From: an uncultured Clostridia bacterium
GTDB lineage: Bacteria > Bacillota > Clostridia > Christensenellales > UBA1242
Reading direction: 5' to 3'
DNA length: 64,000 nucleotides
NCBI GenBank assembly: GCA_937925475.1
Contig: CALEWH010000022.1
Coordinates: 82,835-146,834 of the forward strand
Shown here: positions 3,991-40,765 of the stretch, one piece after another
Layout of the letters: the number at the start of each line of letters is the position of its first letter
How positions within the stretch are numbered: position 1 is the first letter of the stretch
The notes under the pieces: model-generated
Database searches by the model: none
Seen by the model: only the letters and a program-made list of their open reading frames with translations
What the model was told of the DNA's origin: nothing
Program-made: the position numbers and the translations under genes

Positions 3991-4001
3991 TTTTTCCTCG
4001 T

Positions 4002-7933: not shown

Positions 7934-7948
7934 ATATTGTTGTATTTT

Positions 7949-19900: not shown

Positions 19901-22900
19901 TTACAACTGAGCACTCAAACACATTCCATAGTCAGGAGTGATACTAGCGCCAGTGTGGTCAGTATACAACATACAATTTCGGCAGTATCCATTCCATTCG
20001 TAGTAACCACTTCTTATAATAAATAAGTAAAGAGGATCGTCAGTCACATTTTCATCTACTGCATAATACCTTTCACAGCCTGTACATTGTATTTCATATC
20101 TTCCGTCTCCAATGTCGATTGTACCGTACGAACGATTTTTGTTCAGCCAGCCGAATAACATTTTATCGTTGAATGTCTCCCATAACTTAACATTATCTGG
20201 AGTGTCCTTATAATAGAACTTTAACATATTATAATTTGCAGTATTTCCACTACCAGCACCGCTTAGATTTAGTGATGTATTTTCCATCAAATTAATGTAG
20301 TTGGAATTTGTCCAATGACCTACAATGCTGTAATATTTATAATTAAGCAAACAAATATATGTAGTCGAATTTCTTGAACCAAATAGGCCATTGCTTATTG
20401 CATCACTGCTAAATACATTTATAGCATTAATACTACTTGTATAGATGCGTTTTAGATAAGATGATGCATTGTAGAATGCGTTCCTTTCTATTCCACCTTC
20501 GATTAATGTTCGTGGCAATCTTACTTCGCTTAGATGAGTGTTTTTGAATGCATTTTCTTTAATAGTAGTAATCAAATATCTATCATTATAGTATACAAGA
20601 TCGTCTCTATCTAGATTTAATACACTCAAATCGCTTTCAATAGTTTCGTCATTAAGCACACCATTTTCTTTAAACTCTCTAATCACACCACGATATTGAG
20701 GAACATAAATCAAACTATATGTTCCATCAGCATAGTATGATTGGGCAGTACTAACCGAACTATTGTATTTAACATAGGCGTATTCACTAGAAGCATAATC
20801 AATTACGCTCCATTTAGGACATTGAGAACATGTGTATTGCTTTCCACTTATATATGTGTAAGGAAATAATGAGCCTTCAGTACTATTTTCCACATAAATA
20901 CTTTTATTTTTAATAATGGATTTTAGACTAGTGCCATCTTCCACACTAGGATTAGCACTCATGGATACTTCTCTAATATCATTTGTTTGTACCACATGCC
21001 CATCAGGACATAGAATATCATAATAGTGATAATAAGCATAAGTACCAACAGAAGTAGAAGTAGTAGTTAATCTTTGCAATAATACACCGTCATACGAAGC
21101 ATAAGATTGATTCTTGTCAACATTTATTGATTTAATTGCTCGCATATTTTGGAATGCTGCTGGATCAATACTAGTCAAAACGTCATATCCACTGGACATC
21201 GTACCAGTTATATTAATTGTAGTAATAGATCTGTTATAATCAAAACTACCAGCGTGTATTTTTGTTACACCACAATTATAACAGTTAAGTTCGAAAGTAA
21301 CACCGCTAGTTCCGCCCCAATTTTCAGGAACGTAGTACAAGCGTCCAGAGTCGTCACCATTAGCAACTCTTAACCATCCATCTTTAGAAGAATATATGCT
21401 TGTTCCGCCTCCGCCACCACCTGTTATGGTGATAGATTGTAAATATGTTGCACCTGTGAATGCACCATCTAGACTATTTGAATTAAGACCCACATAGCAA
21501 TCAAATGTAAGGTATTTAATACTACTTCCAGCAAATGCACTTTCATTAATTTGTTTTATTTGATATGCTCTCATATACAAAGTAACATCTGTACTAACAT
21601 TGTTTGCCATTGCTCCTTCTGCTATTTTATTTGCTCCAAGTAACATGTCACCAGTCAAATCAGTATACATATTGATCTTTGTAACAGATTTTGCTTCTGG
21701 CACTTTTAGTAGATAATAATCATAATCCAAGCCACCGGTATTGTTTCCATAAAGTATACCATCACGAGTCCAGTAATTAGGTTTTGATGTCACACCATCA
21801 GAATACAAGTATTTTGCATAATCCTCAAGACCGTAAATTTTTATCTTTTCAAGTTTACTCATTCCACATAGATAAGTATCTATCTTATCAGCAGAAATAT
21901 CTTCGTCATGACCACCAACACTTCTTAAATCAGGACTAAATGAGATCTCTGTAAGTCCACTGCCATCTGCGAAGTGCATACCTATAAGCATCAATCCCTT
22001 TTCATTTTCATCATAGCCGCTCAAAGTTTTCAAATTTGTACAACCACTAATTCCGTAGTCACCAATAGTTTTCATTTGTCCACTAAGCGTACTCAAAGCA
22101 GTCATATCTCTAAGGGCATTATTTCCAATAGAAACGGATGATGTCGAAGAAAGTTTAAGTGTAACGATTGTATCATTTGGTAGATATGTTGTGCAATTTT
22201 TAATTTCATTTACTCTTTCAAGATAAACAAATTTCACATTAAATGCACCATTGTCACCAAATGGAGAATGTACACCATCTCCCATTTTAATAGTCTTAGT
22301 CATATCAAGTCCATTGGCAAATCTAATAGTATTATAGGTTACGCCCGGCGAATAACTACCACCTGTTGATGTATTGTAGGTACTAAGTATACTACCTAGA
22401 TACGAATAGTCATTTAGGATAAGTGTATTAAAGTTTTTAAGTGTTGTAGTTTGATTGATTTTATTTCCGCTACTACCCACTAGTCCGATATAATCAACAC
22501 CAGTGATTTTGTTTCCATTTACATCATGCAACGGCATCATAATTGAAGAACGCAAACTACTTAGTTGAGCCAATTTAATACCCTTAACAATTCCGCCAGA
22601 AATATAGAAAGCAGAAGCTGGGGCTTCAATTATAACAAACTTGATATGCTCGTTTTCATCAGACGAAGAGTAGCTAAACAACAACGTTTTGCTATTGTAA
22701 GTACGCATTGCATATTCTCTAGAGATATTTGTATATTGCCAACAATCAACATCATAGTCTGCTTGATAATATACAGTTACGAATACGCCAGAGTTTTGTG
22801 GGTTTGAGCGAAGTATTGCTTCGCTAGAACGCGGAATAGTCTTTCTCTCATTATTAATATAATAATAATGATAAAATCCTTCTTCGCTAGCCAAGAAAGG

Positions 22901-25900
22901 AACATTGCCCATAAACCACACATTAGTGCTGTCTTCTTTGTTAGTGCTACCTTCTTTGTTTTCTATTAGTGACCAACCAGTTTTCTCTATTTTCGAGCCG
23001 AACTCGATTGTTCTTGCAAAATCACCTGAAGAACCATAGAATGCACCGGTACCTACCATTTCAATGTTTGTTAAATCTAAAGTTGTGCAGACACCATAAA
23101 GACCATCGTACCACATCCTTTGCTTATATGCAAAAGCAAAAGGATCAATGGTTTTTATAGTTTCAAATGGTTGAATATCATCCCATCTATCATCACCAGC
23201 AAGTTGTTCATATGTGCTACCATCGCCATTAAGATAAGAAACCCAAGACCCACCTGATGCAAAATAAGCAGGACAATGTAGTAAAGTATCTTTTGTTTTA
23301 TCAAATAGCATTCCGTGTGACAACAACGCAGGTGATGATGATCGATAACAACCCCATGAGCAATAGTTTGTATTATATGGATCAACAACATATCCTACAA
23401 GTTTACTAGATCCATCAAGTGACCAGGACAGACGAGCAATAGATGGATATTTATTGTTTGTATTATTTAAAATATCAGAACTAGAATCATATTTGTCCGT
23501 CATTGTATTTATTTTTGTAATGTTTTTACCAATATAAATAAATTTGATATCACTCGGTTTGTATGTATAATTATTAATTGCACTATTTGCATGTCCACTA
23601 TCATTAAAGTCTATTGTGTTTATCTTATAAGCATTATTACCTCTAAAGTTCCATTCTGGAATGGTAAGTTTTTCTGGCTTATTTGTAAAGAACTTTTGAC
23701 TAGCTGCATTATCAGTGTTGTTCCAACCTGTAATACTATAACCATCCTCAGAATAGGTAAATATACTATTGTCATAATTATCTTGTTCTGGGCCATAAAC
23801 TGGATAGATTGCTATAAATCCTTTATCTTTGTTTTGAGGATCATTATCATGATCTTTAAGTGTCGAATATTTTGTACTTTTAATCTTTGAAAAGTCAGTA
23901 ATTATTGTAATATAAGTAGTAGTATTAAAATTTGCACTATTGGTAGTAAAATTAGCCACCTTATACCATTCTCTCTTATAATTATTATTTTTATTAACTT
24001 TTACTGTTACATATTCAATTGTTTGATTGTCTTTATGAGCATCATATTCTTTAGATGTACTATAGTAAATTTTTTGAGAGTAATACCCGTCTTTATTATT
24101 ATTATCATAGAATCTTTTATATCCATCTTTATCAATTTCTTTATTGAATACTACAATGGTGTACGCTGTGCGTTCAGTATTAAAAATAACTGACGAAGCA
24201 TCAATAGTATAATACTTATTATTCTTAGCCACCAACTTAACACTTGCATACTTGTTACTAATCTCAAAATTTTTATTATTAGTAAATCCAATATCTTGTG
24301 TTTGTCCAGGCAAGTATCTATAAACTATTCTATTGAAGCCTTTCCCATTTTTTACCAAGTCTTCATAATCGCTGGCCCAAGAGAAAGTACGATCATAATA
24401 ATGTCTAGTTTTAACTTTAAATGAAGTACCCTCAACCACTTTTGTATTGCCATAAGAGTCCACATAAGAGTCCATACCATCATCATCAAATCGTAGCTCT
24501 CTTAATGTGTCAAGTTTTTCAAAAGATATAGTTAATGTACAGTTAACAATATTAAGAGTATTGTCTTCATATGGTATAAATTCACAACTTGATTCATTCC
24601 AAGAATAGCGGAACAAATCAGCATTGTTTGTGCCCACCAACCCATACAACCTATCAAATTTCATGTTATCCATGTTATCTTTATTAAGGACTAAAAACAA
24701 ATTATTAGCGGTAAGATAATCACCATAACATGCTATTTTATTATTGTTGTTATCCTTTATACTACTCCACATTGAATCAGCGTCTAATTCGCTACTTATT
24801 TTCTCACGATCAAGATAATCTACTCCTTCAACATAATTTTCTCTCACGACAGCTTCACTTATATAATAAGGTCTTTTTAATACTGTATCATAGGTATATT
24901 GATTTATCGAAGCCGAAGTAAATACATCTTCCTTCATCCAATTTATCAATAATGTTCTAATTTTATTTATTTGATCATCACCGATATCATTACGATAGTA
25001 TACACTATATAACAATTTTGAATCACACTCTATTTTTGTGTAAGAAACACCTATATATGCTGTATTGTTATTAGTAGTGGTTGAAGAAGTTAATAAATTA
25101 TACGTAATGTTTATTTCTCTGAAGTTAACAATACTTGAATAATCAGTTTCAGAAATATCTTCACCACCGCCAGGAACAGGTGTAATATCTCCACCAGAAT
25201 CTTTGTTGAGAGATCCAGATGATTGTAGGCTGTTACCTTCTGGTCCAATTCTAATATATATGGTTTTTGATGGAATAGAAGCTGAAGCAGATTCATAAAA
25301 ATTGATAACCAATTTTGAATCTTCATATGTTAGTTTAACTATACCACCATCGTACCCATAACCACTTATTATAATACTATCTGACGAAATTTGTATTGAA
25401 TCAACAAATCTATTGGTACCATAAACTTTGCCATTACCTTCAAGTTCTCCAACATCATGTTGGAGATCAACATCTATAAAACCAATATTGTTTCTAAATT
25501 TGTCAAATTCTTTTTCATCTTTTTTATCTTTTAAATTGAATTCCTTATTGATTGCAAACGTATATTGTTGCGCTGTTTTTGTTATGAACTCAAAAACGAT
25601 TGTTTGATCTTTATTAGTTAAATCTATATTAAAATCACCAACATTACTATTAGAAGTTATTGTTTTAGTTTTTCCATTATAATTTACGGTCGAATTACTA
25701 CCACTAAATAACCCCGACTCTTCTTCAATAATATTGTCGCGATAGCTTTCAATAATACTATTAATAGTAATATATCTAAACGTTGTTCCAAACGTATCAT
25801 TATTAACTCCTAGATAATAACTATTTCCATATACAATACCATAAATTTTTTGATTATTTACAATCAAAGCATAAGTTTTAAGGCTTTCAATAGACATATT

Positions 25901-28900
25901 TACATTATTTACTTTAACTTGAGCACTCAATGTTTTGTATTCGAAAGATTCAATTCCTACTATATTTGTATTGATTAATTCTCCAGAATCCAATTCACCA
26001 CTAATAATAGAACTACCATTAATATAACTATTTTTTGGATTTTTCATAACTAATATTTTTGAGGAGTTGGATTTCTTTGTGATAGTAAAGCCATCTTTAG
26101 GACCCGGCGTATTAGCAGGATCATCAACTGATTGAGTATACTTCAATTCAAATATGCCATAATTGTTCCATTGAGGCTCGATAGAATACTTCAAGCCTTT
26201 TGGAAAACACCAATTATCTAGATTAAGCAATAGATGATTTCCATTATTTCTATTTACATCATAATCACTATTTGAAGAAGGTACATTATATTGAGTATAA
26301 TAGCTATTCATTGGAATATAAACTTCGTTTGAATCCAATGCCAACGTGTTAATTGTCAAGTTTTTAGTAGTATAACTTACACCATTAATACTAGTTGAAC
26401 TAGCATTTTCTATTTCCACCATACCTTCAGAACTATTATCCATGGAATACCAAGTAGAGTAACAAATTGTTAGATATATGGTAGAATTTAACATGACATC
26501 TAGCGCAATTGGGTTAGATATATTCACATTTGTATTTATTTGTTTTTGTCCGTAGTGATTATAATAAGTTATGTTGGTTATTTTAAATCCATAAGCATCA
26601 TAAGCATACTTATATGATGGATTATCACCAAACAAATAACTTATTGTCCCTTTAGATGTTTCTACTTGATTATTAGTTTTCATATCTTTAGATAAAAGTA
26701 TGTCAGAAACACTTCTTCCTAATTTAACTTCGTAGTTTTCTTGTACGTATACAGTTCTTAATTCAGTATACGAACAACAAGAAACGATAGTATGTTTCAT
26801 GTCACCATAACTGAATAATACACTATCACCACTAAATTCTTCAACCATACCATTATTGTTATAATAATATGTCGATCCTGATTCTTTTGAGATTAGTTTT
26901 CCATTGTCATAATCCATATAACCCCAAAACAAATATCCACTTGGAGTCCAAATATTAGATGATTCGTACAAATCATTAAGTGTCCAGTTTTGTGCACTGA
27001 CATCCCATAAATATGGTGCATTGTTTGATTTAACTTTAATTCCATCTACTTTATCAAATAAGCGTATACCATTTTGTTCATATTGTAGATATGTAATCGA
27101 ATAATTAATGGTAGCTTGTGTTTGAGCTGACAAACAAGGGTCTGTAACTATAGAAAACTCTTGAGTTTTCCAAATAATGTTAACCAATACTGCAAGACTA
27201 ACATCATTATAATTAGCATTATTGCCATCGACTATAAATCCATTATTGTCATCAACTGGCGACTTTGTTAAATTTTTACTTTTATCTATATAATACATAT
27301 CATTACTTTGAGCAAAAGTATAAATCTTGTCTACATGGGCAGAATCAACATCCTTTAATTGTTGAATGATGGTATTTTTATCTATCTTTTTACCTTCCCA
27401 ACATTTACCAAAAGGATACATTACCCTGTCATCATACCAATTATCGACACCATATTTACTTAGTACTTCTTTATCATCCTCAATAGTATAAATATAAACA
27501 TTTACATTATACGAATCTATAAATACTTCTTCCAAAACTTGATTTGTACTATCGATAATTATAGAAGTATTTGTTGGAGTTCCATTTTGATTAATAATCG
27601 ATCTTATTTTAGTCTCAGTATCAAAATCAAACAAAGTAAGATAATTATTATTGTTTGATTTAAAATGTGAATACTGACTATTTTCGCCTATGCTCGAACA
27701 TCCCATATTATTTGAATATTTAGCACAATCAATAAGACTGATAATGTTGTTATTGCATTTTACAAATATTTTTCCTAGATCAAATTCTCCTTCAGGTAAA
27801 TAAATTTCAGTTTGTTTTTCTATATCTTCTGCAAAGCGTGTCATTTGTCCAATATATAGATAAACATAATTATTACTATCTTTATCTAAGTTTGAATAAG
27901 TAGAATGCAATTTAATACTAGACTTAGCATAACTTGTACAATCAATGCTCAATTCTTTTGATTCATTAGGTCCAAAGCAGTCACATAAAAATTCATCATA
28001 TTCTTTAACATAATTACTTGCATCCAATTTTAATTTAGTATCTATAATGTAATATATTTTTTCATCTACACAATCTTTTAGTAGTGTGAAGACTTGGTTT
28101 GTTTCATCGTAAACATAGCCGTCACCATTTACTCCACCATAATTGCTAGACAATGCACTTTTCAAATATTCGATCAACTTAGCTCGGATTGTATTAAAGT
28201 TTTCTTTTGCTTTGTATGTGTCTGTAAATGGATCACAGATTTTGTTTCCATTGTTATCCACAACGCTAATTGTGACTGAGTATGATTTTTCTACAAACAA
28301 AACTTCTACATTTGCTTCATTTGTAGCGTCTACCCCACTAAGCGACTCAACTTGTTGGGTTGTGCCATTTGTGGTTATCGAATAACCATTGTGTTTGTAT
28401 CCACCATTTGGTTTTGGTGTGATGCTAGGAATATTTGAATAACTTGTGTTTTTAACAACTTTAAATGTAACCCTCTCATACACCGATTCGCCTTGTACTT
28501 GGGTCGATGTAGATGAGTATTGAACATATAATTTGTTTCTATTTGCACTTATATCGGTATATGTAAAATATCCTTGCTCAGTACTATTTGTGCTGATAGC
28601 GACAAGAACTGCTGATTCAGTAACCGCAAGCACAGGAGTCGATGCGTCCAAAACACCATTTATAATGTGGTTGGAGATGTCCCAATAATAATCCACACTA
28701 TCATAAGTGATTGTGCCAATCATTATATTAGCAAATTTGGTCTTCAAACTTTCATCTATATGCCCACTCACAAGATATTCGTTGAATGACAATCCATTAT
28801 ATGTTGTAAGACCTTTTGCGTATTCTTTAAAACCATCTATATCTGTCGCTTTAAAACTTTTTTCTGCTACTTTTATTTTTGGGTCAATATCTGAGGATGT

Positions 28901-31900: not shown

Positions 31901-34900
31901 AGTAGTGTTGCTTTTAATTACACTTCCGCCTTTGTAGGCTTCTATTAAATAGCCAGTATGCGAATAATTGTTTTTAACGACCGCAGTAAGGCTTACAAAG
32001 TTGGAATAAACACCATTTGCGCTAGATAGATTTGAAGTGCCATCTCTATAAATCAACCAATGTTCTTGATCGCTAGAACCATTATTTACTACTACTTTGT
32101 ATAGTCTTTCCCACTTGCTATTTATAGTAATGTCACTAGTAAGCACCATATTTAGGTTTACATCACTGCCATCATATTGCCACGAAACAAATGTATTTTT
32201 TACTCCATTTGATGTTTGGTCTTGTGGCATTGTGACATCACTTAATGTGTTTATGCGGGCATTGTATTCATAATTTTTAGTATCAATTTGTGATCCGTCA
32301 TAACCTGTAAAACTTACAGTAATTGTCTTAGGCACAACAACAAACTTGAAAGTAAGTGGAGTTGTGCTTGTCAATGTATACCCTATTCTAAATTCATCAT
32401 AGTTTTCCGAAGCAGTAACCCATGTCCCTTCTATAAGTTGACCGGATTCTACGATATAGATGCCATATAGTTGCCAGTTTTGATCTGTTTCTAGGAAGTA
32501 AGTAATGTTAAGACTTGCCTTAGGATTGACTGACAATATCGAAGAACCTGAAATTGGATAATACTCTTCAATATTACAATTTTCTTTGTCTACTATTTGT
32601 ACACCATATATGTACTTAGCAGTAAGTCCACCATCCAGAGAAACTTCTTGACTCACATCTCTTCCGTCTACAAACTCGGATTTTTGAGTGATTTTTACAT
32701 AGCCATCGATAAAGTTTACATAAAGTGTAGCGCTGTCTTTAAGTGCTGTAATAGTAAGAGTCCAGCCACCGTTACTTACTTTAATGTCATCTCTTGATAC
32801 AGTACTAAGTGAAACAAAATTTCCACTAGAACCTTGAATGTACCAGCCGTCAAGCATATATACTTTATTTTGGTTTGAAGGGTCTTTAACTGTGATAGTG
32901 TACACCATAGCTCCAGATTCTGCACTATCAGAAACTGATGAAGTCGCTTGTCCACCAACAGTCAAAATTTCCCAATTGACAACTTGGTCATTGTGTCTAA
33001 CAGTAACATTTAGACTTACCACATCCTTATCGTAATTAAAGCCAATAAGGATATTGCTTACATATTTAAACTCACCATTATTTTTGATTGTTTCGTCAGA
33101 CCAACCATTGCTGTATTGGAATAGCCAGTTTGTAATTGAGTAATTTATATTTACACGATTAGCCTTTATGCTTACAGTAACTTCTTCGGTTGTGCGTGTG
33201 GTCAAATCTGTAATATGTTTGAAAGTGATAGACCAAGTGTTATCGCTTGCACTTACTGTGTAAGTAGAACCCGCTTCAACAGTATACTGTTTGCTGTCTG
33301 CATAATTTTTAGAGTTTGAATAAGTAAACTCAGTCGAATCTGGATTTGACGCAAACGAAATGGTCATAGTTGCTTTTTCCCACGCTGGGAATACAAAAAT
33401 GTCTTTTTGATTAGGTTTGTTTTGGGCAAGGAAGTCACTAACATTAAATTTGTGTGCAAAGTTTACTATTGTGCCATAATGGTCGCCCGCAACTCCGTCT
33501 TCTGAGTAGCAAAGATAGAAGCCTTTAAGAGTGTGTCCGTCTTTTTGATAAATGGCGGTAGCTTCGCTCTCGCTCATCAAAGTAAACTCTTCATTTAGTT
33601 TTATCTTTTTATTGTCATGACCTGCTGCTTGTGATTGATTTGATTCAGCACCTTTATATTGCACCGAATAAAAGTCTTTATAAACCGCTCTAATTGTAGT
33701 GTCTTGATAGTATTTGTTTTGAACACCAAAATCAACAGCAGTGCCATCTTCAAGTTCCCACGAGTCAAAATATGCATTTGCAGTGTCACTTGTTGTAGCA
33801 TCTGCTGGAAGTGAAATCACTTTGCCCGCTTTATATTTTTCTTGTTTACTATATCCAGTCGCTTCAATAACAAAAGTAACTTTTATTGTTTTGATTGGAT
33901 ACAAGTGGATTTCTTTTGTAGTCAAATATTGACTTGCAAGATCACTTGTAAGAACAAATGTAAATTTGGCGTCGTATGAAGTAGTTGCGCTAGGATTGTA
34001 GACATAGTCTGCTCCCGACATTACAAAACCTACATATTCGTCGCCATACACAAATTCGTTTGTATCTTCTTCTACAAGTGTGTATTCGTCTTTATCCTTA
34101 AACTCGCCAGCATTTGTTAGGTTTTCCCACACGACAATTTTGTACTCGTCAAGTAGGATTGGCGAAAGTGTAACATTTGTAGTAATTGTGAAGTGGTCAG
34201 CCATATTTTTAATATAGTTGTAACCGCTTCCACTTGTAATTGCTTTGTACTTGTTTCCATCTTGGTCAGCCCAACCTACAAACACCTTGCCCGCTACTTT
34301 GTCACTTACTTCCAAGAAAGGTGTGTTGTTTAGACCAGCACCTATGACTTTGCCGTCTTCTGCATCAATGGTTTGATTTGCTTTGCCAAAAGCACTTAGG
34401 TCATAAGTAAGTTTTAGCACTTTTTTGTAGACAGTAGTAAGAGTAAGTGTTTGTGTAACTACTCCCACTTCGATCTTTCCATCTACTACATTGTATGTCT
34501 TATTGTTTGCATCTTTAAATTGTACAAAACTATATTGGATTCCATTTGCATCATATATTGTTTGACGAGTAGTATCAAAATCAATATCTGGTGTATTGCC
34601 ATACTCGATTGATATACTATTTCGGCTATACTCTGACTCATTTACGTCAGTATACACAATAGTAATTGTAAGTGTATCAGCACCCCATTCGACTTCAAAC
34701 ACGATATCTTTTGTGTCTGGGTTTCCAAGACCATTTATATCTGTAGTAGCACCCGGATCAAATGTTTTGTTGCCATATTTCCAAGCATTTATATAGTGTC
34801 CAACTTTTATAAATGCAGTAGCATATTCATCAGCCGAAGGAAGTGTAAACACGCCACCTTCATACAATAATTCGGAGTCTGCAATAGTGTTTTTGCCATC

Positions 34901-37900
34901 TGTGTATTTTATCTCGTAAACTCTTGTCCATTGTGCATACAAATTGTACTTGCCGTTTTGTTTTAATGTGATAGTAGCACCTAGTGCGAAAGTTGTACCA
35001 TTATCGTCTTTCCAACTAGTGATCCTATACATCTCTTTTACAAAGCCTGTATCGGCTACTGCAATTAAACTATTTGCCACGCCATAACTTATTTCTTGTT
35101 CTTTCACTGTGTTAGTGCCATTATTTGCGTGATAAACAATGGTGATTTTTTTGGTTTCCCAGACAGCAACAAACACATCTGGCGTGCTATCTGTTATTTC
35201 GTACTCATCGCCAATATTGTAGACAGTGTCACCTATTTTCCAGCCTGTCAATACGTCTGAATATGCGTCTTTGTTAAGATCAAAAGCCTTGCCTTCGCTG
35301 TCCAATCCAACTTTAATTACATCACCTGTTGCGCCTGTAATTGTAGGATCAGTCACGCCATTTTTGCTTACATAGTAAGTAAACGAACGAAGTTTTGCCA
35401 TTTGCAAACGCACGACAATATATGTCGAGCCACCTTCGATAATGCTCTCGTCGATAGTGATCGACGCACCCATTTCGTAAGCGTTGTTGTTTAGATACCA
35501 CTTCAACGCACGATAACTTACACCATTATGAACCAAAATATTTTGGATATCGTCCGAACTTGGGATATTGAAAGAGTCCCCAAGAGTTTTATTGGAAAGT
35601 GTCGAGTTTTCGATCACTGGGGCATCATTGTCGCCATAAACTGCAACAAATTGGATTGTATATTTTTCTTTTTCAATTACTGGAATAATCTCAATATCTT
35701 TTGTAATGGTGTAGCCATATTTGACTTCTGTAATATCAAACTTGCTATCATCGTCACCCACTACTTTCCAGTATCTGTCATAGACATAACCAGTAGATGC
35801 AACAACACTACTGATATTATCGCGGACAAAACTAATAAGGTCGATTTCGTCACCGCTTACATATTGTACTTTTTTGCTCGAACTTCCTTCATATCTAAAT
35901 GTGCCGTCACTTGTAGCAAACGACAAATAATATAGTTGGGCATAACTTGCATACAAATCAAGTGTAAGAGTGCCATCGACATCGCTAAACAATAGAGTCA
36001 CATCTTCTTCACTTATTCCTAGTTTTTCTGCTAGGTATTTTAGTGAAAGTTCGACATCTTCAAATGTTTTGCCAAAATCTTTTCCGTCGATCAAAGTCCA
36101 TTTGTTTAGAGCCATATTTTCCACTTTAAAACCATCGTCAAGGCTTTGATCTGGAAGATTAAAGTTTTGTGCAAAAGGCACTGTCACAGTCTTTGCGACA
36201 GTTTCACTGCTGTCAGTGGATTTGTGATAGATTATGTTTATCTCTTTTGCGTCATAGCCACTTACAAGAGTAACATCAGATTCTACAACAAACTCATCAG
36301 TATTAATCACTTCGCCATTTCTGTACCATTTTCCGCTTTCATATCCAAAGTAGTTTTCAAGCGAAATATCAATTCCGCTCACATCATTAAGTGAAGTGCC
36401 ATATGCGATATTTTCATATACTACTGGGTCGCTCAACTTGTTTGTAACAGGATTTCTTCTGCTTAGAGTAAGTGTAAATGTTTCGATTTTTGTATACAAT
36501 GTGATTGTCATATCGCTATCAATCTCGACATAACACTTGTCAATGTCATCGATGTTTTCATCAATTCCACTGATTTTCCAGTAGTCATATACTATGCCGT
36601 CTGGAAGCGAAATTTTTGTCTTGATTTTGTTTGTGCTTATAAAGTCATTTACTGCCACACCGTGTCTTACTTTTTCAATTACTATTGTTTCAAAACCTTC
36701 TAGCGGATTTCCGTCAGGGTCTTTTACTTCGACACTAAGTGTGTATTCTTTGATGCTGTATTTTACATAAATGTTGACAGTGCTTGATTTTAGTGGATCA
36801 AACAAAGCCACTTTGTTTCCGTCAGCATCGTCATATTTTGTGGAAATAGTAATGTCAGTGCCATTTGCAAACACCACATCGCCACCAGCACTCAAAGTAA
36901 ATCCATCAAGTGCATAACCGCTTGGATTTGTGATAGTTTTGCTATCAGTGCCATAACCGATTATTTGACCAAGTGTAACTTTTGAAATGTTTACACCAAA
37001 GTCTTTGTATGTCATTCCGACTTGCAAGATTCTTGACGAACGCGAGCCGTCTACATTTGTGTTGTAGATATTAAGGGTGTATCTGATAGGTTCCCAAGAA
37101 GCATAAAGTGTAGTGTCAGTCGCAAACGCAACACTATTTCTGCTTACATAACGAGTGGCTGGCGAGTAGTTTTCAGTAACACCATCACTTGTAAATCTGT
37201 CTTTTGCTAGCACCCAACCTTTGAAAGTGTGATAAGGTCGAGTAGGATTTGGGCCTGTTGGGATAGAGATATTTTTGCCAGTCATAGTTTTGATTGACTC
37301 AGGGACATCTCCTTCGACATCTTCAAAGCCCTTGTCAAAACTTACTACTACTTGAGTTGTCCAAATAGCCTTTATTGTAAAGGTGTATTCGCCATCGTCA
37401 CGAGCTTGCGAAACCTTTGTACTATATTTGTACAAATCCGCTTGTTTTGATGAAGCGGTCAACATCTCTCCGTCATTGTATGTAGCCAAAACTTTGTTGT
37501 CGCTATCCACCAAAGCCCAACCACATAGCAAATATACGACGCTTCCCACAACATATGTTGCGTTGGACTCGCCTTGTGTGTTGATTGCATTGTAGACAAT
37601 GTGGTTTTCCCATTGTCCGTCTACTTTGGTGTTGTATTTCACAACTGGATTTTCTAGTAATTTAGCTTGAAGATACTCACTAAAAACAATGTTTTGTGGG
37701 TCTTTTTCTATGCAAGTAACTTTTCCGTCAGCAAGTGTATTGATAGAAAAATCATACTTGATATGATATTCGTTTGGCTTCCAATATGGATACAACGAAA
37801 CTGACCTTACGCCATTTGCAAAAAGGAAAGTGTCTTTTTCGCCCATTTGAGCCGCGTTTGTAATAAACTTGTAGTTTGTTTTTGTGTCGTATACTTCTGG

Positions 37901-39385
37901 ACTCGAATTGCTAGATGTGCGCGACCAACCACCAAAATAGTATCCGTCTCTAACAATTTGAGGCATGCTTGCAATGTCTCTCAATTTGTCAAATCCATTT
38001 TCACTTACTGGTTGGTTGTCATATGTCTTGTTGTTGTATTTGTACGAGATGTGAAGATATTCTTCCCAGTTGGCATACAAAATATATGTCCTGACCCCAG
38101 GCTCCAAAAATGAAAAACCAGGGTCACGATTTGTGTAATAGTCATCAAAGTCTTCGGGATCAAATTGGGTTTGAGAATTGTATTCTACTCCACCGTTCTT
38201 CTCAGTAAACCAGCCCAAAAACTTGTGCGATACTATCGAAGTGTTTGTGCTATAATACACTCTGCCTTCAAGTAACTCGTTGCTATACACTCCACCGTCG
38301 ATAGTGCCCATTTTGGCTTTATAATAAAAACCTTTTTTGGCTTTGAAATAATCTGAGTTTAGCACACTGCCATTTGAATCTGGCACCATTATTGACGAAT
38401 TGGCAATCGAATATATACTGCCAGGGCGCGCATCTTTGTTTAGACTAAATAGCACATTAAACTTTACTACTTGCCATTTTGCAAATAGCACAATAGGTTT
38501 TGAATTATCAACATCATGAATAGGAGAAAGGTTTGAATTTGAAAGTTGGTTTAGACCCATATACACTTGGTCAAAATTAACCGCTTTTTCAAAGTTTTCA
38601 TCTAAGTACCAACCTACAAATTGATAATAACCTTTTTCGTTTGAAGGTACTTCTGGTACTTCCATTTTGTATGAGTATTTGTACGAAAGATATTTGTACA
38701 AAAGTTGGTTTTGCGAACTATATCTTACAAAACCATCATTATCTACGACCACATTTGCGTCTTTGCTAAGGTCTTGTATGTAAAAACTTACATCATAAGT
38801 ATTTGGTTCCCACACTGCAAACAAGTTTACATTTGACGCAGGCATCAAAAAGTCGCCACCTGCACCACACGCTGCGCTGTTTGCGTTTTGAGTAGTGGAC
38901 CAGCCCGCAAATGTATAACCTAGTTTTGCCGAGTTTAGAGTTATTTTATTGCCATTAAGGACAATCTCTTCACTGCCATCAGGAGTCTTTACATAATCGT
39001 TGATGTGTTTTGTCACAGCGTCATAAATGTCTGTGTACACCACGCCGTCTAAGACACAATTGTATGTAAGCGAATAGTCGATAGCTTCAAACTTTGCATA
39101 AAGTTCGATATCATTACTCAACGCTTCATTATATTGGAATGGGTCGGTACATTCTTGGTCCCTAAACCATCCTACAAATCTATAACCTTCTTTTTCAGGT
39201 TTTTTAAGCGCCGGTATGCTCGAATTTTTCTTTATTTGGAGCGTATCGTATAGCTCGTTGTCGCTAATAAGGTGAATAGAAACCCTAGGATAATAATTGA
39301 TGTACAACAAAGTAGATACTAGGACTAGTAGCACCAATATTGTGATTAAGATAATATTTATCAACAATTTTTTTCGTTTACTCAT
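19901..39385 (-). CDS. Giant membrane-anchored surface protein, 6,494 aa: N-terminal TM anchor, InlB-B-repeat (Listeria-Bacteroides repeat) array, unassigned N/Y/S-rich region, BspA-type leucine-rich repeats
   Basis: The frame is open for 19,485 nt, while every competing ORF across the span is <=135 aa. The N-terminus is MSKRKKLLINIILITILVLLVLVSTLLYI. Repeats end in signatures such as EGYRFVGWF, LGYTFAGWS, YYQFVGWY, HKFLGWF, GYYFGGWS, HTFKGWV, KVFVGWA and GYSFAGWS. LRR-type segments include IGDYGISGCTNLKTLSG, INESAFAGSSIKYLTF and IKENAFKNTHLSEVRLPRTL. A GGGAGAA SD lies 4-5 nt upstream of the ATG. Confidence 0.9.
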   Translation of the reverse strand: MSKRKKLLINIILITILVLLVLVSTLLYINYYPRVSIHLISDNELYDTLQIKKNSSIPALKKPEKEGYRFVGWFRDQECTDPFQYNEALSNDIELYAKFEAIDYSLTYNCVLDGVVYTDIYDAVTKHINDYVKTPDGSEEIVLNGNKITLNSAKLGYTFAGWSTTQNANSAACGAGGDFLMPASNVNLFAVWEPNTYDVSFYIQDLSKDANVVVDNDGFVRYSSQNQLLYKYLSYKYSYKMEVPEVPSNEKGYYQFVGWYLDENFEKAVNFDQVYMGLNQLSNSNLSPIHDVDNSKPIVLFAKWQVVKFNVLFSLNKDARPGSIYSIANSSIMVPDSNGSVLNSDYFKAKKGFYYKAKMGTIDGGVYSNELLEGRVYYSTNTSIVSHKFLGWFTEKNGGVEYNSQTQFDPEDFDDYYTNRDPGFSFLEPGVRTYILYANWEEYLHISYKYNNKTYDNQPVSENGFDKLRDIASMPQIVRDGYYFGGWSRTSSNSSPEVYDTKTNYKFITNAAQMGEKDTFLFANGVRSVSLYPYWKPNEYHIKYDFSINTLADGKVTCIEKDPQNIVFSEYLQAKLLENPVVKYNTKVDGQWENHIVYNAINTQGESNATYVVGSVVYLLCGWALVDSDNKVLATYNDGEMLTASSKQADLYKYSTKVSQARDDGEYTFTIKAIWTTQVVVSFDKGFEDVEGDVPESIKTMTGKNISIPTGPNPTRPYHTFKGWVLAKDRFTSDGVTENYSPATRYVSRNSVAFATDTTLYASWEPIRYTLNIYNTNVDGSRSSRILQVGMTYKDFGVNISKVTLGQIIGYGTDSKTITNPSGYALDGFTLSAGGDVVFANGTDITISTKYDDADGNKVALFDPLKSSTVNIYVKYSIKEYTLSVEVKDPDGNPLEGFETIVIEKVRHGVAVNDFISTNKIKTKISLPDGIVYDYWKISGIDENIDDIDKCYVEIDSDMTITLYTKIETFTLTLSRRNPVTNKLSDPVVYENIAYGTSLNDVSGIDISLENYFGYESGKWYRNGEVINTDEFVVESDVTLVSGYDAKEINIIYHKSTDSSETVAKTVTVPFAQNFNLPDQSLDDGFKVENMALNKWTLIDGKDFGKTFEDVELSLKYLAEKLGISEEDVTLLFSDVDGTLTLDLYASYAQLYYLSFATSDGTFRYEGSSSKKVQYVSGDEIDLISFVRDNISSVVASTGYVYDRYWKVVGDDDSKFDITEVKYGYTITKDIEIIPVIEKEKYTIQFVAVYGDNDAPVIENSTLSNKTLGDSFNIPSSDDIQNILVHNGVSYRALKWYLNNNAYEMGASITIDESIIEGGSTYIVVRLQMAKLRSFTYYVSKNGVTDPTITGATGDVIKVGLDSEGKAFDLNKDAYSDVLTGWKIGDTVYNIGDEYEITDSTPDVFVAVWETKKITIVYHANNGTNTVKEQEISYGVANSLIAVADTGFVKEMYRITSWKDDNGTTFALGATITLKQNGKYNLYAQWTRVYEIKYTDGKNTIADSELLYEGGVFTLPSADEYATAFIKVGHYINAWKYGNKTFDPGATTDINGLGNPDTKDIVFEVEWGADTLTITIVYTDVNESEYSRNSISIEYGNTPDIDFDTTRQTIYDANGIQYSFVQFKDANNKTYNVVDGKIEVGVVTQTLTLTTVYKKVLKLTYDLSAFGKANQTIDAEDGKVIGAGLNNTPFLEVSDKVAGKVFVGWADQDGNKYKAITSGSGYNYIKNMADHFTITTNVTLSPILLDEYKIVVWENLTNAGEFKDKDEYTLVEEDTNEFVYGDEYVGFVMSGADYVYNPSATTSYDAKFTFVLTSDLASQYLTTKEIHLYPIKTIKVTFVIEATGYSKQEKYKAGKVISLPADATTSDTANAYFDSWELEDGTAVDFGVQNKYYQDTTIRAVYKDFYSVQYKGAESNQSQAAGHDNKKIKLNEEFTLMSESEATAIYQKDGHTLKGFYLCYSEDGVAGDHYGTIVNFAHKFNVSDFLAQNKPNQKDIFVFPAWEKATMTISFASNPDSTEFTYSNSKNYADSKQYTVEAGSTYTVSASDNTWSITFKHITDLTTRTTEEVTVSIKANRVNINYSITNWLFQYSNGWSDETIKNNGEFKYVSNILIGFNYDKDVVSLNVTVRHNDQVVNWEILTVGGQATSSVSDSAESGAMVYTITVKDPSNQNKVYMLDGWYIQGSSGNFVSLSTVSRDDIKVSNGGWTLTITALKDSATLYVNFIDGYVKITQKSEFVDGRDVSQEVSLDGGLTAKYIYGVQIVDKENCNIEEYYPISGSSILSVNPKASLNITYFLETDQNWQLYGIYIVESGQLIEGTWVTASENYDEFRIGYTLTSTTPLTFKFVVVPKTITVSFTGYDGSQIDTKNYEYNARINTLSDVTMPQDQTSNGVKNTFVSWQYDGSDVNLNMVLTSDITINSKWERLYKVVVNNGSSDQEHWLIYRDGTSNLSSANGVYSNFVSLTAVVKNNYSHTGYLIEAYKGGSVIKSNTTKTKLYTSYLKNDFIQSDFDKVDYIKISPTYEKMYTIIVKNEDGSISETLKDKYRVNDIFTVANPTKAGYSFAGWSVSYKTSGNDKTYKISKFDSTSLSNCGISPENDIILSANNQFEIYFTPEFVVNSYNISFATNNESMGSVSSPAVYSINYDTTITFTFDSNGGTAKFVDANGRQVEITYTSLNGNTFTGFYDSLSSAVKLGSSIVFKYENDVVIYGVFKLNPVTVTATLMSKSGSDEYSTELIGGSIKVGNGEAVNGVNNFTTYSSSDTFEFVLTPEKGFKLTSVTYTMGGASAATLSPDASGKYSILLTGDCAIDVLFDALQTSLQMSVNNTTTLTNTPYAYIYSSETDATKIDKTFESLSAQEISTDYYLKEGTVIVNANPDYYSIDKFTYKINGGAETAFSKLRIEEVSTGYKLSFMYQSESIEIIVYIKAKQVEVTYYDMDLSGNKVMGTRYFDYGITLTNDKISANSPKTLVEYRFDKDGNSTTVPTSVVGGLNFKYIWGYKDASGMIVEIGNSGYTLNSDVEIYPISEKHYFLTYEGVHASALTDSFSASNTVNLKKLSLSTGYELAGYKVYLGLNKSVEGITITYNGTNFIYNNEIVNTCDISMFADGHASFASSRDKNDFSIYLEAIEKVKEYEIKFEIESTSAGDGTIEVVGSDGSKETYNKNQTAIYKIPHFYKLQYSVVAGVKTIKVLNASSVVQYTVRYVPASACVCGKLQYNKNNGNWSEINSDTTLAVENTMNFKCIFNNSNGHVDFVFKVDANIPDAWILALTINNGGNNIEYVMGLYDESGNFVERNTSYTTFNRKQLKYSDLKVLRVIMERTKSFTYSIEYNSTYYKNSNISKTYTIINDGSEMINVTASVSWYETNYYTYFYNGSTSEENSDYGHALVHYKNAVKDANNYITGYTPTTVDSTASNFSWYEGDQIYLTLVDVANGYELLGIYDGTNPTTSNKIASKESATNRYVVNKDNKDEYVYVIFQEQTLSFTFAIATSSDIDPKIKVAEKSFKATDIDGFKEYAKGLTTYNGLSFNEYLVSGHIDESLKTKFANIMIGTITYDSVDYYWDISNHIINGVLDASTPVLAVTESAVLVAISTNSTEQGYFTYTDISANRNKLYVQYSSTSTQVQGESVYERVTFKVVKNTSYSNIPSITPKPNGGYKHNGYSITTNGTTQQVESLSGVDATNEANVEVLFVEKSYSVTISVVDNNGNKICDPFTDTYKAKENFNTIRAKLIEYLKSALSSNYGGVNGDGYVYDETNQVFTLLKDCVDEKIYYIIDTKLKLDASNYVKEYDEFLCDCFGPNESKELSIDCTSYAKSSIKLHSTYSNLDKDSNNYVYLYIGQMTRFAEDIEKQTEIYLPEGEFDLGKIFVKCNNNIISLIDCAKYSNNMGCSSIGENSQYSHFKSNNNNYLTLFDFDTETKIRSIINQNGTPTNTSIIIDSTNQVLEEVFIDSYNVNVYIYTIEDDKEVLSKYGVDNWYDDRVMYPFGKCWEGKKIDKNTIIQQLKDVDSAHVDKIYTFAQSNDMYYIDKSKNLTKSPVDDNNGFIVDGNNANYNDVSLAVLVNIIWKTQEFSIVTDPCLSAQTQATINYSITYLQYEQNGIRLFDKVDGIKVKSNNAPYLWDVSAQNWTLNDLYESSNIWTPSGYLFWGYMDYDNGKLISKESGSTYYYNNNGMVEEFSGDSVLFSYGDMKHTIVSCCSYTELRTVYVQENYEVKLGRSVSDILLSKDMKTNNQVETSKGTISYLFGDNPSYKYAYDAYGFKITNITYYNHYGQKQINTNVNISNPIALDVMLNSTIYLTICYSTWYSMDNSSEGMVEIENASSTSINGVSYTTKNLTINTLALDSNEVYIPMNSYYTQYNVPSSNSDYDVNRNNGNHLLLNLDNWCFPKGLKYSIEPQWNNYGIFELKYTQSVDDPANTPGPKDGFTITKKSNSSKILVMKNPKNSYINGSSIISGELDSGELINTNIVGIESFEYKTLSAQVKVNNVNMSIESLKTYALIVNNQKIYGIVYGNSYYLGVNNDTFGTTFRYITINSIIESYRDNIIEEESGLFSGSNSTVNYNGKTKTITSNSNVGDFNIDLTNKDQTIVFEFITKTAQQYTFAINKEFNLKDKKDEKEFDKFRNNIGFIDVDLQHDVGELEGNGKVYGTNRFVDSIQISSDSIIISGYGYDGGIVKLTYEDSKLVINFYESASASIPSKTIYIRIGPEGNSLQSSGSLNKDSGGDITPVPGGGEDISETDYSSIVNFREINITYNLLTSSTTTNNNTAYIGVSYTKIECDSKLLYSVYYRNDIGDDQINKIRTLLINWMKEDVFTSASINQYTYDTVLKRPYYISEAVVRENYVEGVDYLDREKISSELDADSMWSSIKDNNNNKIACYGDYLTANNLFLVLNKDNMDNMKFDRLYGLVGTNNADLFRYSWNESSCEFIPYEDNTLNIVNCTLTISFEKLDTLRELRFDDDGMDSYVDSYGNTKVVEGTSFKVKTRHYYDRTFSWASDYEDLVKNGKGFNRIVYRYLPGQTQDIGFTNNKNFEISNKYASVKLVAKNNKYYTIDASSVIFNTERTAYTIVVFNKEIDKDGYKRFYDNNNKDGYYSQKIYYSTSKEYDAHKDNQTIEYVTVKVNKNNNYKREWYKVANFTTNSANFNTTTYITIITDFSKIKSTKYSTLKDHDNDPQNKDKGFIAIYPVYGPEQDNYDNSIFTYSEDGYSITGWNNTDNAASQKFFTNKPEKLTIPEWNFRGNNAYKINTIDFNDSGHANSAINNYTYKPSDIKFIYIGKNITKINTMTDKYDSSSDILNNTNNKYPSIARLSWSLDGSSKLVGYVVDPYNTNYCSWGCYRSSSPALLSHGMLFDKTKDTLLHCPAYFASGGSWVSYLNGDGSTYEQLAGDDRWDDIQPFETIKTIDPFAFAYKQRMWYDGLYGVCTTLDLTNIEMVGTGAFYGSSGDFARTIEFGSKIEKTGWSLIENKEGSTNKEDSTNVWFMGNVPFLASEEGFYHYYYINNERKTIPRSSEAILRSNPQNSGVFVTVYYQADYDVDCWQYTNISREYAMRTYNSKTLLFSYSSSDENEHIKFVIIEAPASAFYISGGIVKGIKLAQLSSLRSSIMMPLHDVNGNKITGVDYIGLVGSSGNKINQTTTLKNFNTLILNDYSYLGSILSTYNTSTGGSYSPGVTYNTIRFANGLDMTKTIKMGDGVHSPFGDNGAFNVKFVYLERVNEIKNCTTYLPNDTIVTLKLSSTSSVSIGNNALRDMTALSTLSGQMKTIGDYGISGCTNLKTLSGYDENEKGLMLIGMHFADGSGLTEISFSPDLRSVGGHDEDISADKIDTYLCGMSKLEKIKIYGLEDYAKYLYSDGVTSKPNYWTRDGILYGNNTGGLDYDYYLLKVPEAKSVTKINMYTDLTGDMLLGANKIAEGAMANNVSTDVTLYMRAYQIKQINESAFAGSSIKYLTFDCYVGLNSNSLDGAFTGATYLQSITITGGGGGGTSIYSSKDGWLRVANGDDSGRLYYVPENWGGTSGVTFELNCYNCGVTKIHAGSFDYNRSITTINITGTMSSGYDVLTSIDPAAFQNMRAIKSINVDKNQSYASYDGVLLQRLTTTSTSVGTYAYYHYYDILCPDGHVVQTNDIREVSMSANPSVEDGTSLKSIIKNKSIYVENSTEGSLFPYTYISGKQYTCSQCPKWSVIDYASSEYAYVKYNSSVSTAQSYYADGTYSLIYVPQYRGVIREFKENGVLNDETIESDLSVLNLDRDDLVYYNDRYLITTIKENAFKNTHLSEVRLPRTLIEGGIERNAFYNASSYLKRIYTSSINAINVFSSDAISNGLFGSRNSTTYICLLNYKYYSIVGHWTNSNYINLMENTSLNLSGAGSGNTANYNMLKFYYKDTPDNVKLWETFNDKMLFGWLNKNRSYGTIDIGDGRYEIQCTGCERYYAVDENVTDDPLYLFIIRSGYYEWNGYCRNCMLYTDHTGASITPDYGMCLSAQL

Positions 39386-39409
39386 GATGTTCTCCCATTT
39401 ATATATATA

Positions 39410-39438
39410 AATATATATAAAAGTACAATAATTGTCAA
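39410..39438 (-). promoter_or_regulatory. Candidate sigma-A promoter of the giant gene
   Basis: On the minus strand: TTGACA (39438-39433), a 17-nt spacer, then TATATT (39415-39410), about 25 nt upstream of the ATG. Confidence 0.4.
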
Positions 39439-39493: not shown

Positions 39494-40765
39494 CTAAAAC
39501 TTGTCTTTAATTTTTATATCCAAAACAATTTGACAGTCCTGCAAATAATCTTCTTCCGAATGGGTCGACATATATTTTTCCCATTGTTTTGTTTTGCGCT
39601 TTGAAAATACATCGACAAACTCCATAATGTCAATATTGTTTTGGCGCGATTTTTCCATAACTCCGTCTGCACCTTTCTTGATTTTTTCTTTGATTGCGTC
39701 CTTAATATTTTCGCCAATGTGAGTTTTTGCATTGTCCATTTGCTCGACACTTGTTTTTGTGTCGCATATCTCATAAAGCGCTACAATAAGCGTCATTTCG
39801 CATTTTATTGTTGGCTTTCCATCATCAAAATAAAACGAATTTTTATTGATTATCTGGATTATGTCAAGCCCCACATTTGCATTTGATTTGTCGCTGTCAC
39901 TAATGTTTTCTAATAACATAAAAGTCGACCTTAATGACTTATTGTATATCTCGTAAAAAAGTGTTTCTTCTTTATCTATTTCACACACTCTTTTGCCCTT
40001 TTTCAAAAACAACAATTTCTCTGTGCCCTTGATTTTTTCTGTCTCTTCGTTTTCGCTTCCGCCACCCGAATCACTTCCGCCACTTTGTCCGCTTTGTTCG
40101 CTCGAATTGCCACTCTCACCACTGCTCTCTTGTCCGCCACCTTGACTCTTATCGTCTTCGGGTTTTTCTATGTCGTACACATTAAGATATGTGATTCCAC
40201 TTTTGCCAAAATACATCCGATATATTGTGTCAATATTACTGCCCGCTCCCATTGTAGACTTGTTGTCTTTTTGCACTAGATTTGTAAGTAAAACTGTCGA
40301 CAACGATTTTGTGTTTAGCGCAGTCTCCAACATCTTTTTTGCCCCGCCAGCACAGTTTACTATATAGGCTCTTTTTGTGATGTTGTACTGTCTTACAAAA
40401 TAGTCAATTGTTTTTGTGATGTCGTCTTCAAGCACTTCATCATTTACTACTATAAAGTCACAGTGTGCAAGCCCTATGCTCTTGCCGATATTGTGCGACA
40501 TTTGATTAAAGGCTTCGCCTACCGTTTTGCCCTTGGTCGAAACCAAATACAAATTGCTACTTGGGTCACTTGTATTGGACGGAACAACCATAAGGCTACT
40601 AATTTCGTACTCGTCATCTTTCTTGTCTATCCCGACCGCTGTTATTATCGCCCGTGTATCCGACTCGGCTTCACGATAAAAGGCTTTTGGGAAAAACACA
40701 AGCGCCAAAAGTAAAAACACAATCCACGTTTTGTTTTTGGCAAGTTTTTTGAAAAAATGTTTCAT
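39494..40765 (-). CDS. Spore germination protein, Ger(x)C family (C subunit of a GerA-type receptor)
   Basis: It is third in a gerAA-AB-AC-like order, with a 4-nt overlap with the B subunit. AIITAVGIDKKDDEYEIS matches the Ger(x)C N-domain start. It has an unusual G/S/E-rich insert and no lipobox Cys (see findings). Confidence 0.7.
   Translation of the reverse strand: MKHFFKKLAKNKTWIVFLLLALVFFPKAFYREAESDTRAIITAVGIDKKDDEYEISSLMVVPSNTSDPSSNLYLVSTKGKTVGEAFNQMSHNIGKSIGLAHCDFIVVNDEVLEDDITKTIDYFVRQYNITKRAYIVNCAGGAKKMLETALNTKSLSTVLLTNLVQKDNKSTMGAGSNIDTIYRMYFGKSGITYLNVYDIEKPEDDKSQGGGQESSGESGNSSEQSGQSGGSDSGGGSENEETEKIKGTEKLLFLKKGKRVCEIDKEETLFYEIYNKSLRSTFMLLENISDSDKSNANVGLDIIQIINKNSFYFDDGKPTIKCEMTLIVALYEICDTKTSVEQMDNAKTHIGENIKDAIKEKIKKGADGVMEKSRQNNIDIMEFVDVFSKRKTKQWEKYMSTHSEEDYLQDCQIVLDIKIKDKF

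Follow-up and report, generated by a model that had tools for sequence, protein, structure and literature searches.

Fibrillar adhesins form a class of surface proteins composed of an anchor, a stalk and a distal binding domain (Monzon et al. 2021, PMC8286594). A gene whose product resembles this class was analyzed in a 64-kb stretch of DNA from an uncultured Clostridia bacterium of the order Christensenellales (contig CALEWH010000022.1, positions 82,835 to 146,834 of the forward strand), which is called the window below. The gene, referred to as the giant gene, encodes 6,494 amino acids (aa), and all protein positions refer to this product. Like the fibrillar adhesins, it is fast-evolving and hard to annotate, and it is predicted to be an anchored, long multidomain protein with a putative binding end remote from the anchor; the tandem small beta-domains of the class were found as about 32 modules of the InlB B-repeat type. 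In the usual arrangement of the Firmicutes an N-terminal adhesive domain is followed by a C-terminal LPxTG motif, whereas here a helix is N-terminal and the putative binding end C-terminal, a known wall-anchoring motif is lacking, and about 1,650 aa of unrecognised type lie between the stalk and the leucine-rich repeats (LRR). The outer parts of the protein are mosaic and hypervariable. Based on its sequence, the product is probably a very long surface protein, a fibrillar-adhesin-like binder or recogniser with a strain-specific tip.

Listeria InlB also combines an LRR region with B-repeat (Flg_new) modules, and its B-repeat structure (2y5p) was both the only sequence match in the PDB and the best structural match. 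InlB differs in having one B-repeat, as compared to about 32 here, and in its reversed domain order; the LRRs of the giant protein are of the BspA type (LRR_5) and not of the internalin type, GW modules are absent from it, and it is about ten times larger. Tannerella forsythia BspA and its relatives, which come from host-associated anaerobes, are exposed surface proteins with LRR_5, as is proposed here, and LRR_5 is a plausible binding domain. Unlike in BspA, LRR_5 makes up only about 10% of the giant protein, is interrupted and scores weakly (43.8 bits), and neither Big_2 nor a type IX secretion tail was among the Pfam matches, the comparison having been made through the Pfam family only.

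The extracellular proteins Giant1-5 of Apilactobacillus kunkeei are reported to be 3,000-8,000 aa long and encoded in a small genome, and their positional homologues to diversify mainly by short intragenic recombination, with exchange between genera (PMC12863079). The likeness is that of giant, here putatively extracellular, proteins diversified by intragenic recombination. As described there, Giant1-5 have an N-terminal beta-solenoid as in serine-rich-repeat proteins and form a five-gene cluster, whereas here a single gene encodes a stalk of B-repeats with LRR_5 at the C-terminal end. The giant genes of metagenome-derived bacteria (bioRxiv 10.1101/2023.11.21.568195; a survey of proteins >5,000 aa, PMC11573180) are similar in being huge open reading frames (ORFs) hidden by assembly fragmentation. 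Those of the bioRxiv report are reportedly implicated in cell-wall degradation by predatory bacteria, unlike the present protein, in which no cell-wall-degradation domain was detected. By its B-repeat stalk and BspA-type LRRs the giant protein belongs with the known giant adhesin-like surface proteins. Beyond routine are the region of about 1,650 aa, whose sequence is restricted to the clade, and the sharply bounded within-species hypervariability; a hypervariable outer third at a core-genome locus is a new feature.

The complete coding sequence, of 6,494 codons plus stop, was identified at 19901..39385 (-) based on the ORF list, codon usage and the full-length orthologues P0001 and P0002. It starts with ATG, is intact and occupies 30.4% of the window. 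Codon usage was scored as a log-likelihood ratio, with twelve housekeeping genes of the window as the training set; these genes themselves gave 0.37-0.57. Frame 0 of the giant ORF gave +0.32 to +0.58 bits/codon in 13 of 13 windows of 500 codons, while the other two frames were negative in all of them. The biggest ORFs overlapping the gene were of 135 aa (35528..35935) and 99 aa (23591..23890). A Shine-Dalgarno sequence (GGGAGA, 39391..39396 (-)) was read 5 nucleotides (nt) before the ATG, and a consensus scan revealed a sigma-70-type promoter (TTGACA-17-TATATT, 39410..39438 (-)) with 11 of 12 consensus positions. Neither DNA tandem repeats nor DNA self-similarity were found inside the gene, and repeat-collapse misassembly therefore has no substrate. 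The giant gene is a real, coding gene. An earlier note on this DNA had claimed a single coding ORF of 19.5 kb over about 30% of the window, alternative overlapping ORFs of at most 135 aa, a Shine-Dalgarno sequence and promoter of its own, and a position between rpsF-ssb-rpsR and a germinant-receptor operon. All of this was borne out, the position by Pfam.

The N-terminal signal-anchor (aa 1-33; 39287..39385 (-)) was predicted by hydropathy and consists of MSKRKK and a hydrophobic helix of about 22 residues (aa ~7-28), in agreement with the lysine-rich N-terminus and single helix described earlier. No other Kyte-Doolittle window of the protein exceeds 1.6, and the segment is near-identical in P0001.

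It is followed by about 32 divergent modules of the InlB-B-repeat/Flg_new type, the proposed stalk (aa 34-3135; 29981..39286 (-)), based on profiles, module alignment and a structural model. Curated cut-offs were passed in aa 1-720 by Flg_new (PF09479; 106.3 bits versus 27, in five stretches), TIGR02543 of NCBIfam (45.5 versus 20.95 bits) and Flg_new_2 (30.4 versus 23.6 bits), which upholds the Listeria-Bacteroides/InlB B-repeat call that the earlier note had named as refutable. Weak Flg_new matches were located near aa 690-745 and aa 2529-2572, and the match to 2y5p falls on aa 50-101. The strict motif phi-x-G-W was present in 13 copies, 11 of them in aa 1-2,600, as compared to 1.9 +/- 1.4 in shuffled sequences.

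Pfam alone recognises about seven of the modules. A narrow hidden Markov model built from six strong modules and iterated gave no further copies and was replaced by hand segmentation with cross-validation. From aa 34-3700, 37 candidate modules with a mean length of 99 aa were cut by eye; the consensus of their alignment was Y-x-I-x-Y ... G-Y-x-F-x-G-W ... D-x-x-L-x-A. Among the aligned stalk modules, column identity is about 14% on average. Because the boundaries had been drawn by eye, the set was cross-validated. With a profile made from the Pfam-silent modules 8-26 only, six of the seven recognised modules scored above all 200 of their own shuffles, and the silent modules appear on this test to be of the same family as those recognised by Flg_new. 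A second profile, made from modules 1-27, supported modules 28, 32 and 37, the score of the last being reached by none of 200 shuffles; modules 30 and 31 were borderline, and 29 and 33-36 were unsupported.

An AlphaFold2 model of module 32 (aa 3034-3135), for which the protein's own modules served as the alignment, was all-beta with a predicted local distance difference test score (pLDDT) of 65.9. Its top four PDB matches in Foldseek were the InlB B-repeat (probability 0.97, target template-modelling score 0.62), followed by ubiquitin-like beta-grasp folds. The model is supporting, non-independent evidence that the module may have the B-repeat fold. The array is supported to at least aa 3135, with an extra supported copy at aa 3599-3700. 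Module-like segments of uncertain type cover aa 3136-3780 (28046..29980 (-)); their conservation is stalk-like, and only aa 3599-3700 among them are supported as B-repeat. Of what had been described earlier, the dozens of modules stood, while their length was corrected from 70-80 to about 95-99 aa, and the array was found to run some 440 to 1,000 aa into a stretch that had been called motif-free (to aa 3135 at least). Across 3,780 aa the copy number did not differ from that of P0001, as would be expected if the divergence of the modules protects the array from unequal recombination.

A hypervariable, non-repetitive cassette with no known domain was delimited at aa ~3781-5444 (23054..28045 (-)) by the drop in identity, third-position GC, nonsynonymous divergence (dN) and negative profile searches. 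No match to aa ~3780-5440 was obtained in Pfam, NCBIfam, PHROGs or the PDB by sequence or profile, and the PDB gave no match when searched by sequence with the distal 3,894 aa or with a pre-LRR profile. An exhaustive phmmer search with aa 3500-4699 against 1.84 billion cluster representatives identified one protein, the collinear orthologue P0001. Three descriptions of the cassette were tried and rejected: further B-repeat modules (hhalign probabilities all <10%), hidden internal repeats (best probability 3.7%) and phage origin (viral-contig scan and PHROGs both empty). Because the B-repeat array extends further, the unrecognised part amounts to about 1,650 aa. The earlier description of about 2,700 aa without a motif is thus retained for this part, the remainder being B-repeat or module-like, and the guess that the middle holds undescribed domain types is in keeping with the empty domain searches and with the orthologue as the sole phmmer hit. 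Towards its end the cassette includes a pre-LRR block (aa 4966-5430; 23096..24490 (-)), which is alignable in all relatives at 25-41% identity (BLAST E 1e-10 to 1e-49) and shows the motifs IPEWNF, TIDF, YIYIG-NI and LLHCP. Its invariant positions are mostly aromatic or hydrophobic and look structural rather than catalytic.

BspA-type LRR_5 blocks, broken by insertions, were identified by Pfam in aa 5744-6323 (20417..22156 (-)), at aa 5744-5824, 5942-5988, 6040-6092 and 6272-6323. LRR_5 (PF13306) scored 43.8 bits in the last 644 aa (aa 5851-6494), above its cut-off of 27.7; the BspA-type call made before is therefore sustained, but not as an uninterrupted run of repeats, since non-LRR insertions separate the blocks. 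LRR_5 was the only Pfam family in the fragments of relatives (L002, 92 bits; L024, 43; L023, 38). At the end of the protein, an allele alignment identified the element CxxC-x30-CxxC (aa 6434-6471; 19973..20086 (-); C-x-G-C-x-x-Y ... G-Y-C-R-N-C). It is invariant in the window, P0001, P0002, L023 and L024, with surrounding sequence 22-40% identical to P0001. Although the protein is presumably extracellular and its host a strict anaerobe, its last 460 aa contain four CxxC motifs, at aa 6035, 6186, 6434 and 6468; the second of these is matched by Cys-containing motifs in most alleles, and the first has no counterpart in the other aligned alleles.

The relatives used here are about a dozen contigs from other samples, found by exact RpsF, RpsR and SSB sequence, and a long gene lies directly upstream of rpsF in every contig so recovered. 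Among the samples with matches were ERZ28634211, ERR14033147, SRR8180450 and ERZ27286994. Based on the identity of the flanking DNA, L023, L024 and L031 are conspecific strains (98-99%), and L027, L028 and L029 represent a sister species (~87%). P0001 is a protein of the sister species and not a conspecific allele, since its flanking DNA is 87% identical. At the same locus the sister species has P0001 (6,323 aa, 99-kb contig) and P0002 (6,326 aa, 27-kb contig), both intact. None of seven partial copies has an internal stop codon, and the start codon and N-terminus are conserved between the window protein and P0001. The whole gene is spanned by only three of about 15 assemblies (the window, L027 and L030), the rest ending inside it or at its edge.

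The RecD2 helicase of the window has its best match, at 88% identity, in a metagenome-assembled genome labelled uncultured Christensenella sp., which assigns the window to uncultured Christensenellales of the gut. In two more distant species (L001 and L002) a very long frame (>2,780 aa) is present at the same position, and genomes with a RecD2 identity of <=71% have no giant frame at the syntenic position. In L001 (~6700-8779, +) the tail has a dozen or more repeats of about 40 aa (IWTDG-x-N-IYYS...QYVL...W-x-x-KTWTG), which have a propeller-blade-like look, gave no Pfam match at E <= 0.01 and are absent from the window protein.

In the protein collection the exact protein of the window forms a singleton cluster. 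To recover the 5' half of the gene elsewhere, GerAC, GerAB, GerAA and a 142-aa deaminase were looked up as exact proteins, but no matches were obtained. Scans of species-representative genomes, for which the middle region of the protein was the query, and of Joint Genome Institute metagenome contigs, for which its first 1,200 and its last 1,065 aa were used, revealed no relative. Word-indexed protein searches (aa 2621-5700; aa 4794-6111; a six-sequence pre-LRR profile) returned nothing, which says little because the window protein and P0001, both in the collection, were missed as well.

Between the window and the sister species the neighbouring proteins are 89-100% identical. Along the giant protein, identity to P0001 is 83-93% in aa 1-1000, 57-80% in aa 1000-3780 (57-72% in aa 3136-3780), 18-40% in aa ~3790-5200, 54-85% in aa 5570-6070 and 22-41% in the last ~430 aa. 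Over a span of 20 residues at aa ~3780 it drops from ~65% to ~15%, and third-position GC falls at the same boundary from 0.25-0.32 to 0.15-0.23. Nonsynonymous and synonymous (dS) divergence from the sister species was calculated by the Nei-Gojobori method. The flanking genes gave dS 0.75-1.4, dN 0.02-0.055 and dN/dS 0.02-0.07. In the distal stalk dS was about 0.85-1.07, as in the flanks, with dN 0.23 and dN/dS 0.21-0.27. Here dN remained at 0.23 throughout aa 3164-3781 (dS ~0.85-1.07 in aa 3319-3781) and jumped to 0.92 at aa ~3782. In the cassette dN was 0.58-1.05 and dS was saturated, dN/dS not being estimable, while the LRR region gave dS 0.57-1.4, dN 0.14-0.33 and dN/dS 0.19-0.30.

The conspecific strains share flanking DNA at 98-99% and neighbouring proteins at 98-100% identity with the window. 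Within the gene, DNA similarity to L023 and L024 ends at one nucleotide, 23055 (aa ~5444). Upstream of it in the gene (aa 4600-5400) the window allele is 18-51% identical to an allele common to L023, L024 and L031, and the last 880 aa are 83% (L031), 78% (L023) and 64% (L024) identical to the window. In the alignable C-terminal part, dS versus L023 was 0.07-0.8 (flanks 0.02-0.06) and dN/dS was 0.4-1.1 (flanks <=0.14). Because synonymous divergence is raised, the alleles are older than the genomes carrying them and are not simply the result of fast evolution in place. Relationships also change along the protein: the outlier is the window in the pre-LRR block and P0001 in the LRR part, and the tail of the window clusters with that of L023, those of L024 and P0001 being different. 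These conflicting relationships, the sharp boundaries and the drop in third-position GC indicate a recombination mosaic.

Cassette homology to P0001 was detected at 27% identity over 874 aa (E 9e-39) and to L001 at 24% over 905 aa (E 1e-22). The cassette alleles, being homologous and collinear, are therefore diverged versions of one architecture and not unrelated insertions. Their identity is 18-51% within the species and 24-27% between species. In six sister-species contigs from different samples (L027, L028, L029, L030, L032 and L033; ERZ272374xx and DRR1988xx series) the distal allele is 99-100% identical, and these may represent one cohort or one circulating strain. Within the 64 kb no DNA or protein copies of the giant gene that could be silent donors and no retroelement were found, nor were inverted repeats at its promoter. 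Neither a diversity-generating retroelement target nor programmed gene conversion is supported by these 64 kb, in which a reverse transcriptase and donor copies are lacking.

From these data we infer the topology, surface display and binding function of the protein as follows. The Lys/Arg-rich N-terminus and single helix would hold it in the cytoplasmic membrane, with the N-terminus on the inner side and everything beyond the helix on the outside. An extended stalk would be built from about 32 B-repeat modules of beta-grasp type; judged roughly from their number, its length would be on the order of 100 nm. The outer third, comprising the cassette of about 1,650 aa, the BspA-type LRR region and the terminal Cys4 element, would be the working end, which most likely binds or recognises a partner, for example a glycan or mucus of the host, a second microbe or a particle. 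Deeply diverged outer alleles would be shuffled by homologous recombination between strains and probably between related species too, with the stalk inherited vertically under weakened constraint. Because divergence rises away from the anchor and peaks in the cassette and tail, diversifying or frequency-dependent selection on the exposed end would fit; the divergence pattern does not tell ligand diversity, phage and host immunity apart as the putative selective agent.

A more specific proposal, which is held only tentatively and is rather doubtful, is that the cassette represents one or more undescribed folds that set partner specificity, with ancient alleles, balancing selection and cross-species exchange. 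If true, this gut lineage, which is heritable and associated with health, would display on its surface a recognition code that differs between strains, with a possible role in attachment to the host or in aggregation with other cells such as methanogens.

Several observations speak against a surface binder of this kind. Its topology and display were deduced from hydropathy and the positive-inside rule. A sortase-motif search of the giant protein found no wall anchor, and SLH, LysM and choline-binding domains were not among the Pfam matches, anchor families not having been searched specifically; the protein may instead be cleaved and released. In the stalk, the Foldseek E-value for module 32 was weak (0.07) and the alignment behind the model contained genuine Flg_new modules, and in the outer part single LRR_5 blocks fell below the cut-off (14-23 bits each). 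A single-sequence AlphaFold2 model of aa 3301-4400 reached a pLDDT of 28.7 and was not interpreted, and the cassette could be an enzyme or another non-binding module. Values of dN/dS are mostly <1, and relaxed constraint together with recombination would also fit the data. Finally, the allele combination of the window was seen in one assembly only, and a chimeric join between co-occurring strains may have produced it.

A different view, which we regard as unlikely, is that the exposed fibre is mainly a target, of phage as a receptor or of host immunoglobulin, and that its variability reflects escape, with adhesion secondary or absent. The concentration of hypervariability in the parts furthest from the membrane, the old, recombining alleles with raised dS and the core chromosomal locus without mobile elements would all be accounted for, as would the fact that the assemblies of most samples break within the gene, which is expected of within-population polymorphism. 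The same features are compatible with an adhesin, however, since exposed adhesins are targets too, and a gene of 19.5 kb without a positive function would probably be lost. The 99-100% identical allele in six sister-species samples argues against a universal, rapid arms-race turnover, and the cassette has no phage-related homology. The adhesin-like surface protein is preferred.

According to Pfam, the giant gene is flanked downstream by rpsF, ssb, rpsR, a RecD2-type helicase gene and comF, and upstream by gerAC, gerAB and gerAA. No terminator was found between its stop codon and rpsF, which has its own promoter (TTGCAA-17-TATAAT); a terminator follows rpsR. The remaining window is core chromosome (secA, prfB, tsaD, pheST, nrdDG, tex), and no reverse transcriptase, integrase, transposase, sortase or dedicated secretion genes were found in it. 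The location directly downstream of gerAA-gerAB-gerAC, with a gap of 108 nt, could suggest a fibre of the spore surface or exosporium, a very unlikely assignment for which this adjacency is the sole evidence. The promoter is of the vegetative type and no recognisable sporulation-sigma promoter was seen (by consensus scan only), collagen-like or BclA-type repeats are absent, and an N-terminal membrane anchor suits the membrane of a vegetative cell.

The conserved proximal part and variable distal part, together with tails that differ between strains and are entirely different in L001, also recall polymorphic toxins or contact-dependent effectors, in which a conserved stalk delivers variable C-terminal toxin modules. 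We give this hardly any credence: no toxin, pre-toxin or immunity domain was found in Pfam, NCBIfam or PHROGs, rpsF, which has its own promoter, follows immediately downstream and leaves no place for an adjacent immunity gene, the extreme C-terminus is conserved and not variable, and the window lacks type V, VI and VII secretion genes and Esx or LXG features. An assembly artefact, chimera or decaying pseudogene might be suspected from the probable metagenomic derivation of the contig, the breaks of most other assemblies inside the gene, the singleton cluster of the exact protein and the sharp allele boundaries, which could be chimeric joins, but is highly improbable given 19,485 nt free of stop codons in AT-rich DNA, coding signal in every window, two other full-length versions and seven partial copies that are intact, a conserved start codon and N-terminus, dN/dS <1 in most windows and the lack of DNA repeats to drive collapse.

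Few gut taxa have been tied as consistently to host genetics and leanness as the Christensenellales, and to our knowledge almost nothing is known of how they contact their surroundings. The giant gene, which is probably the largest in its genome, encodes a candidate for the molecule by which the cell touches mucus of the host, particles or microbial partners. Methanobrevibacter grows within flocs of Christensenella (PMC7002349), and a link of the giant protein to these flocs would be speculation. Its outer third could serve as a natural strain marker and is a likely site of selection. The cassette, whose only relative among the 1.84 billion representatives is its own orthologue, would be a target for structure determination. 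Because assemblies break at such genes and word-indexed searches miss them, giant surface genes are likely under-reported by pipelines.

A complete gerAA-gerAB-gerAC operon is present at 39494-43352 (-) of the window (GerA, 479 bits). The cultured type species of Christensenellales is described as non-spore-forming. In the relatives L003 and L006 no ger genes were found within the 10 kb examined upstream of recD2. Directly upstream of the ger operon, at 43473-46166 (-), is a gene for an 897-aa protein with a transglutaminase-core domain (aa 450-554) as its sole Pfam match; this could be a further large protein of the envelope or the spore. Five ORFs at 46614-49936 (-) and 52599-53615 (-), of 281, 225, 213, 370 and 338 aa, had no Pfam match at E <= 1e-5, and four of them are consecutive, between a cytidine deaminase gene and a DegV gene. 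On the other side of the giant gene, a 242-aa ORF at 14764-15492 (+) joins a C-terminal fragment of DAHP synthase (aa 4-78) to a NUDIX domain (aa 109-217). At its position in L023 a 167-aa NUDIX protein and a 60-aa product were called, and in the 242-aa ORF a gene remnant may have been fused by the calling procedure.

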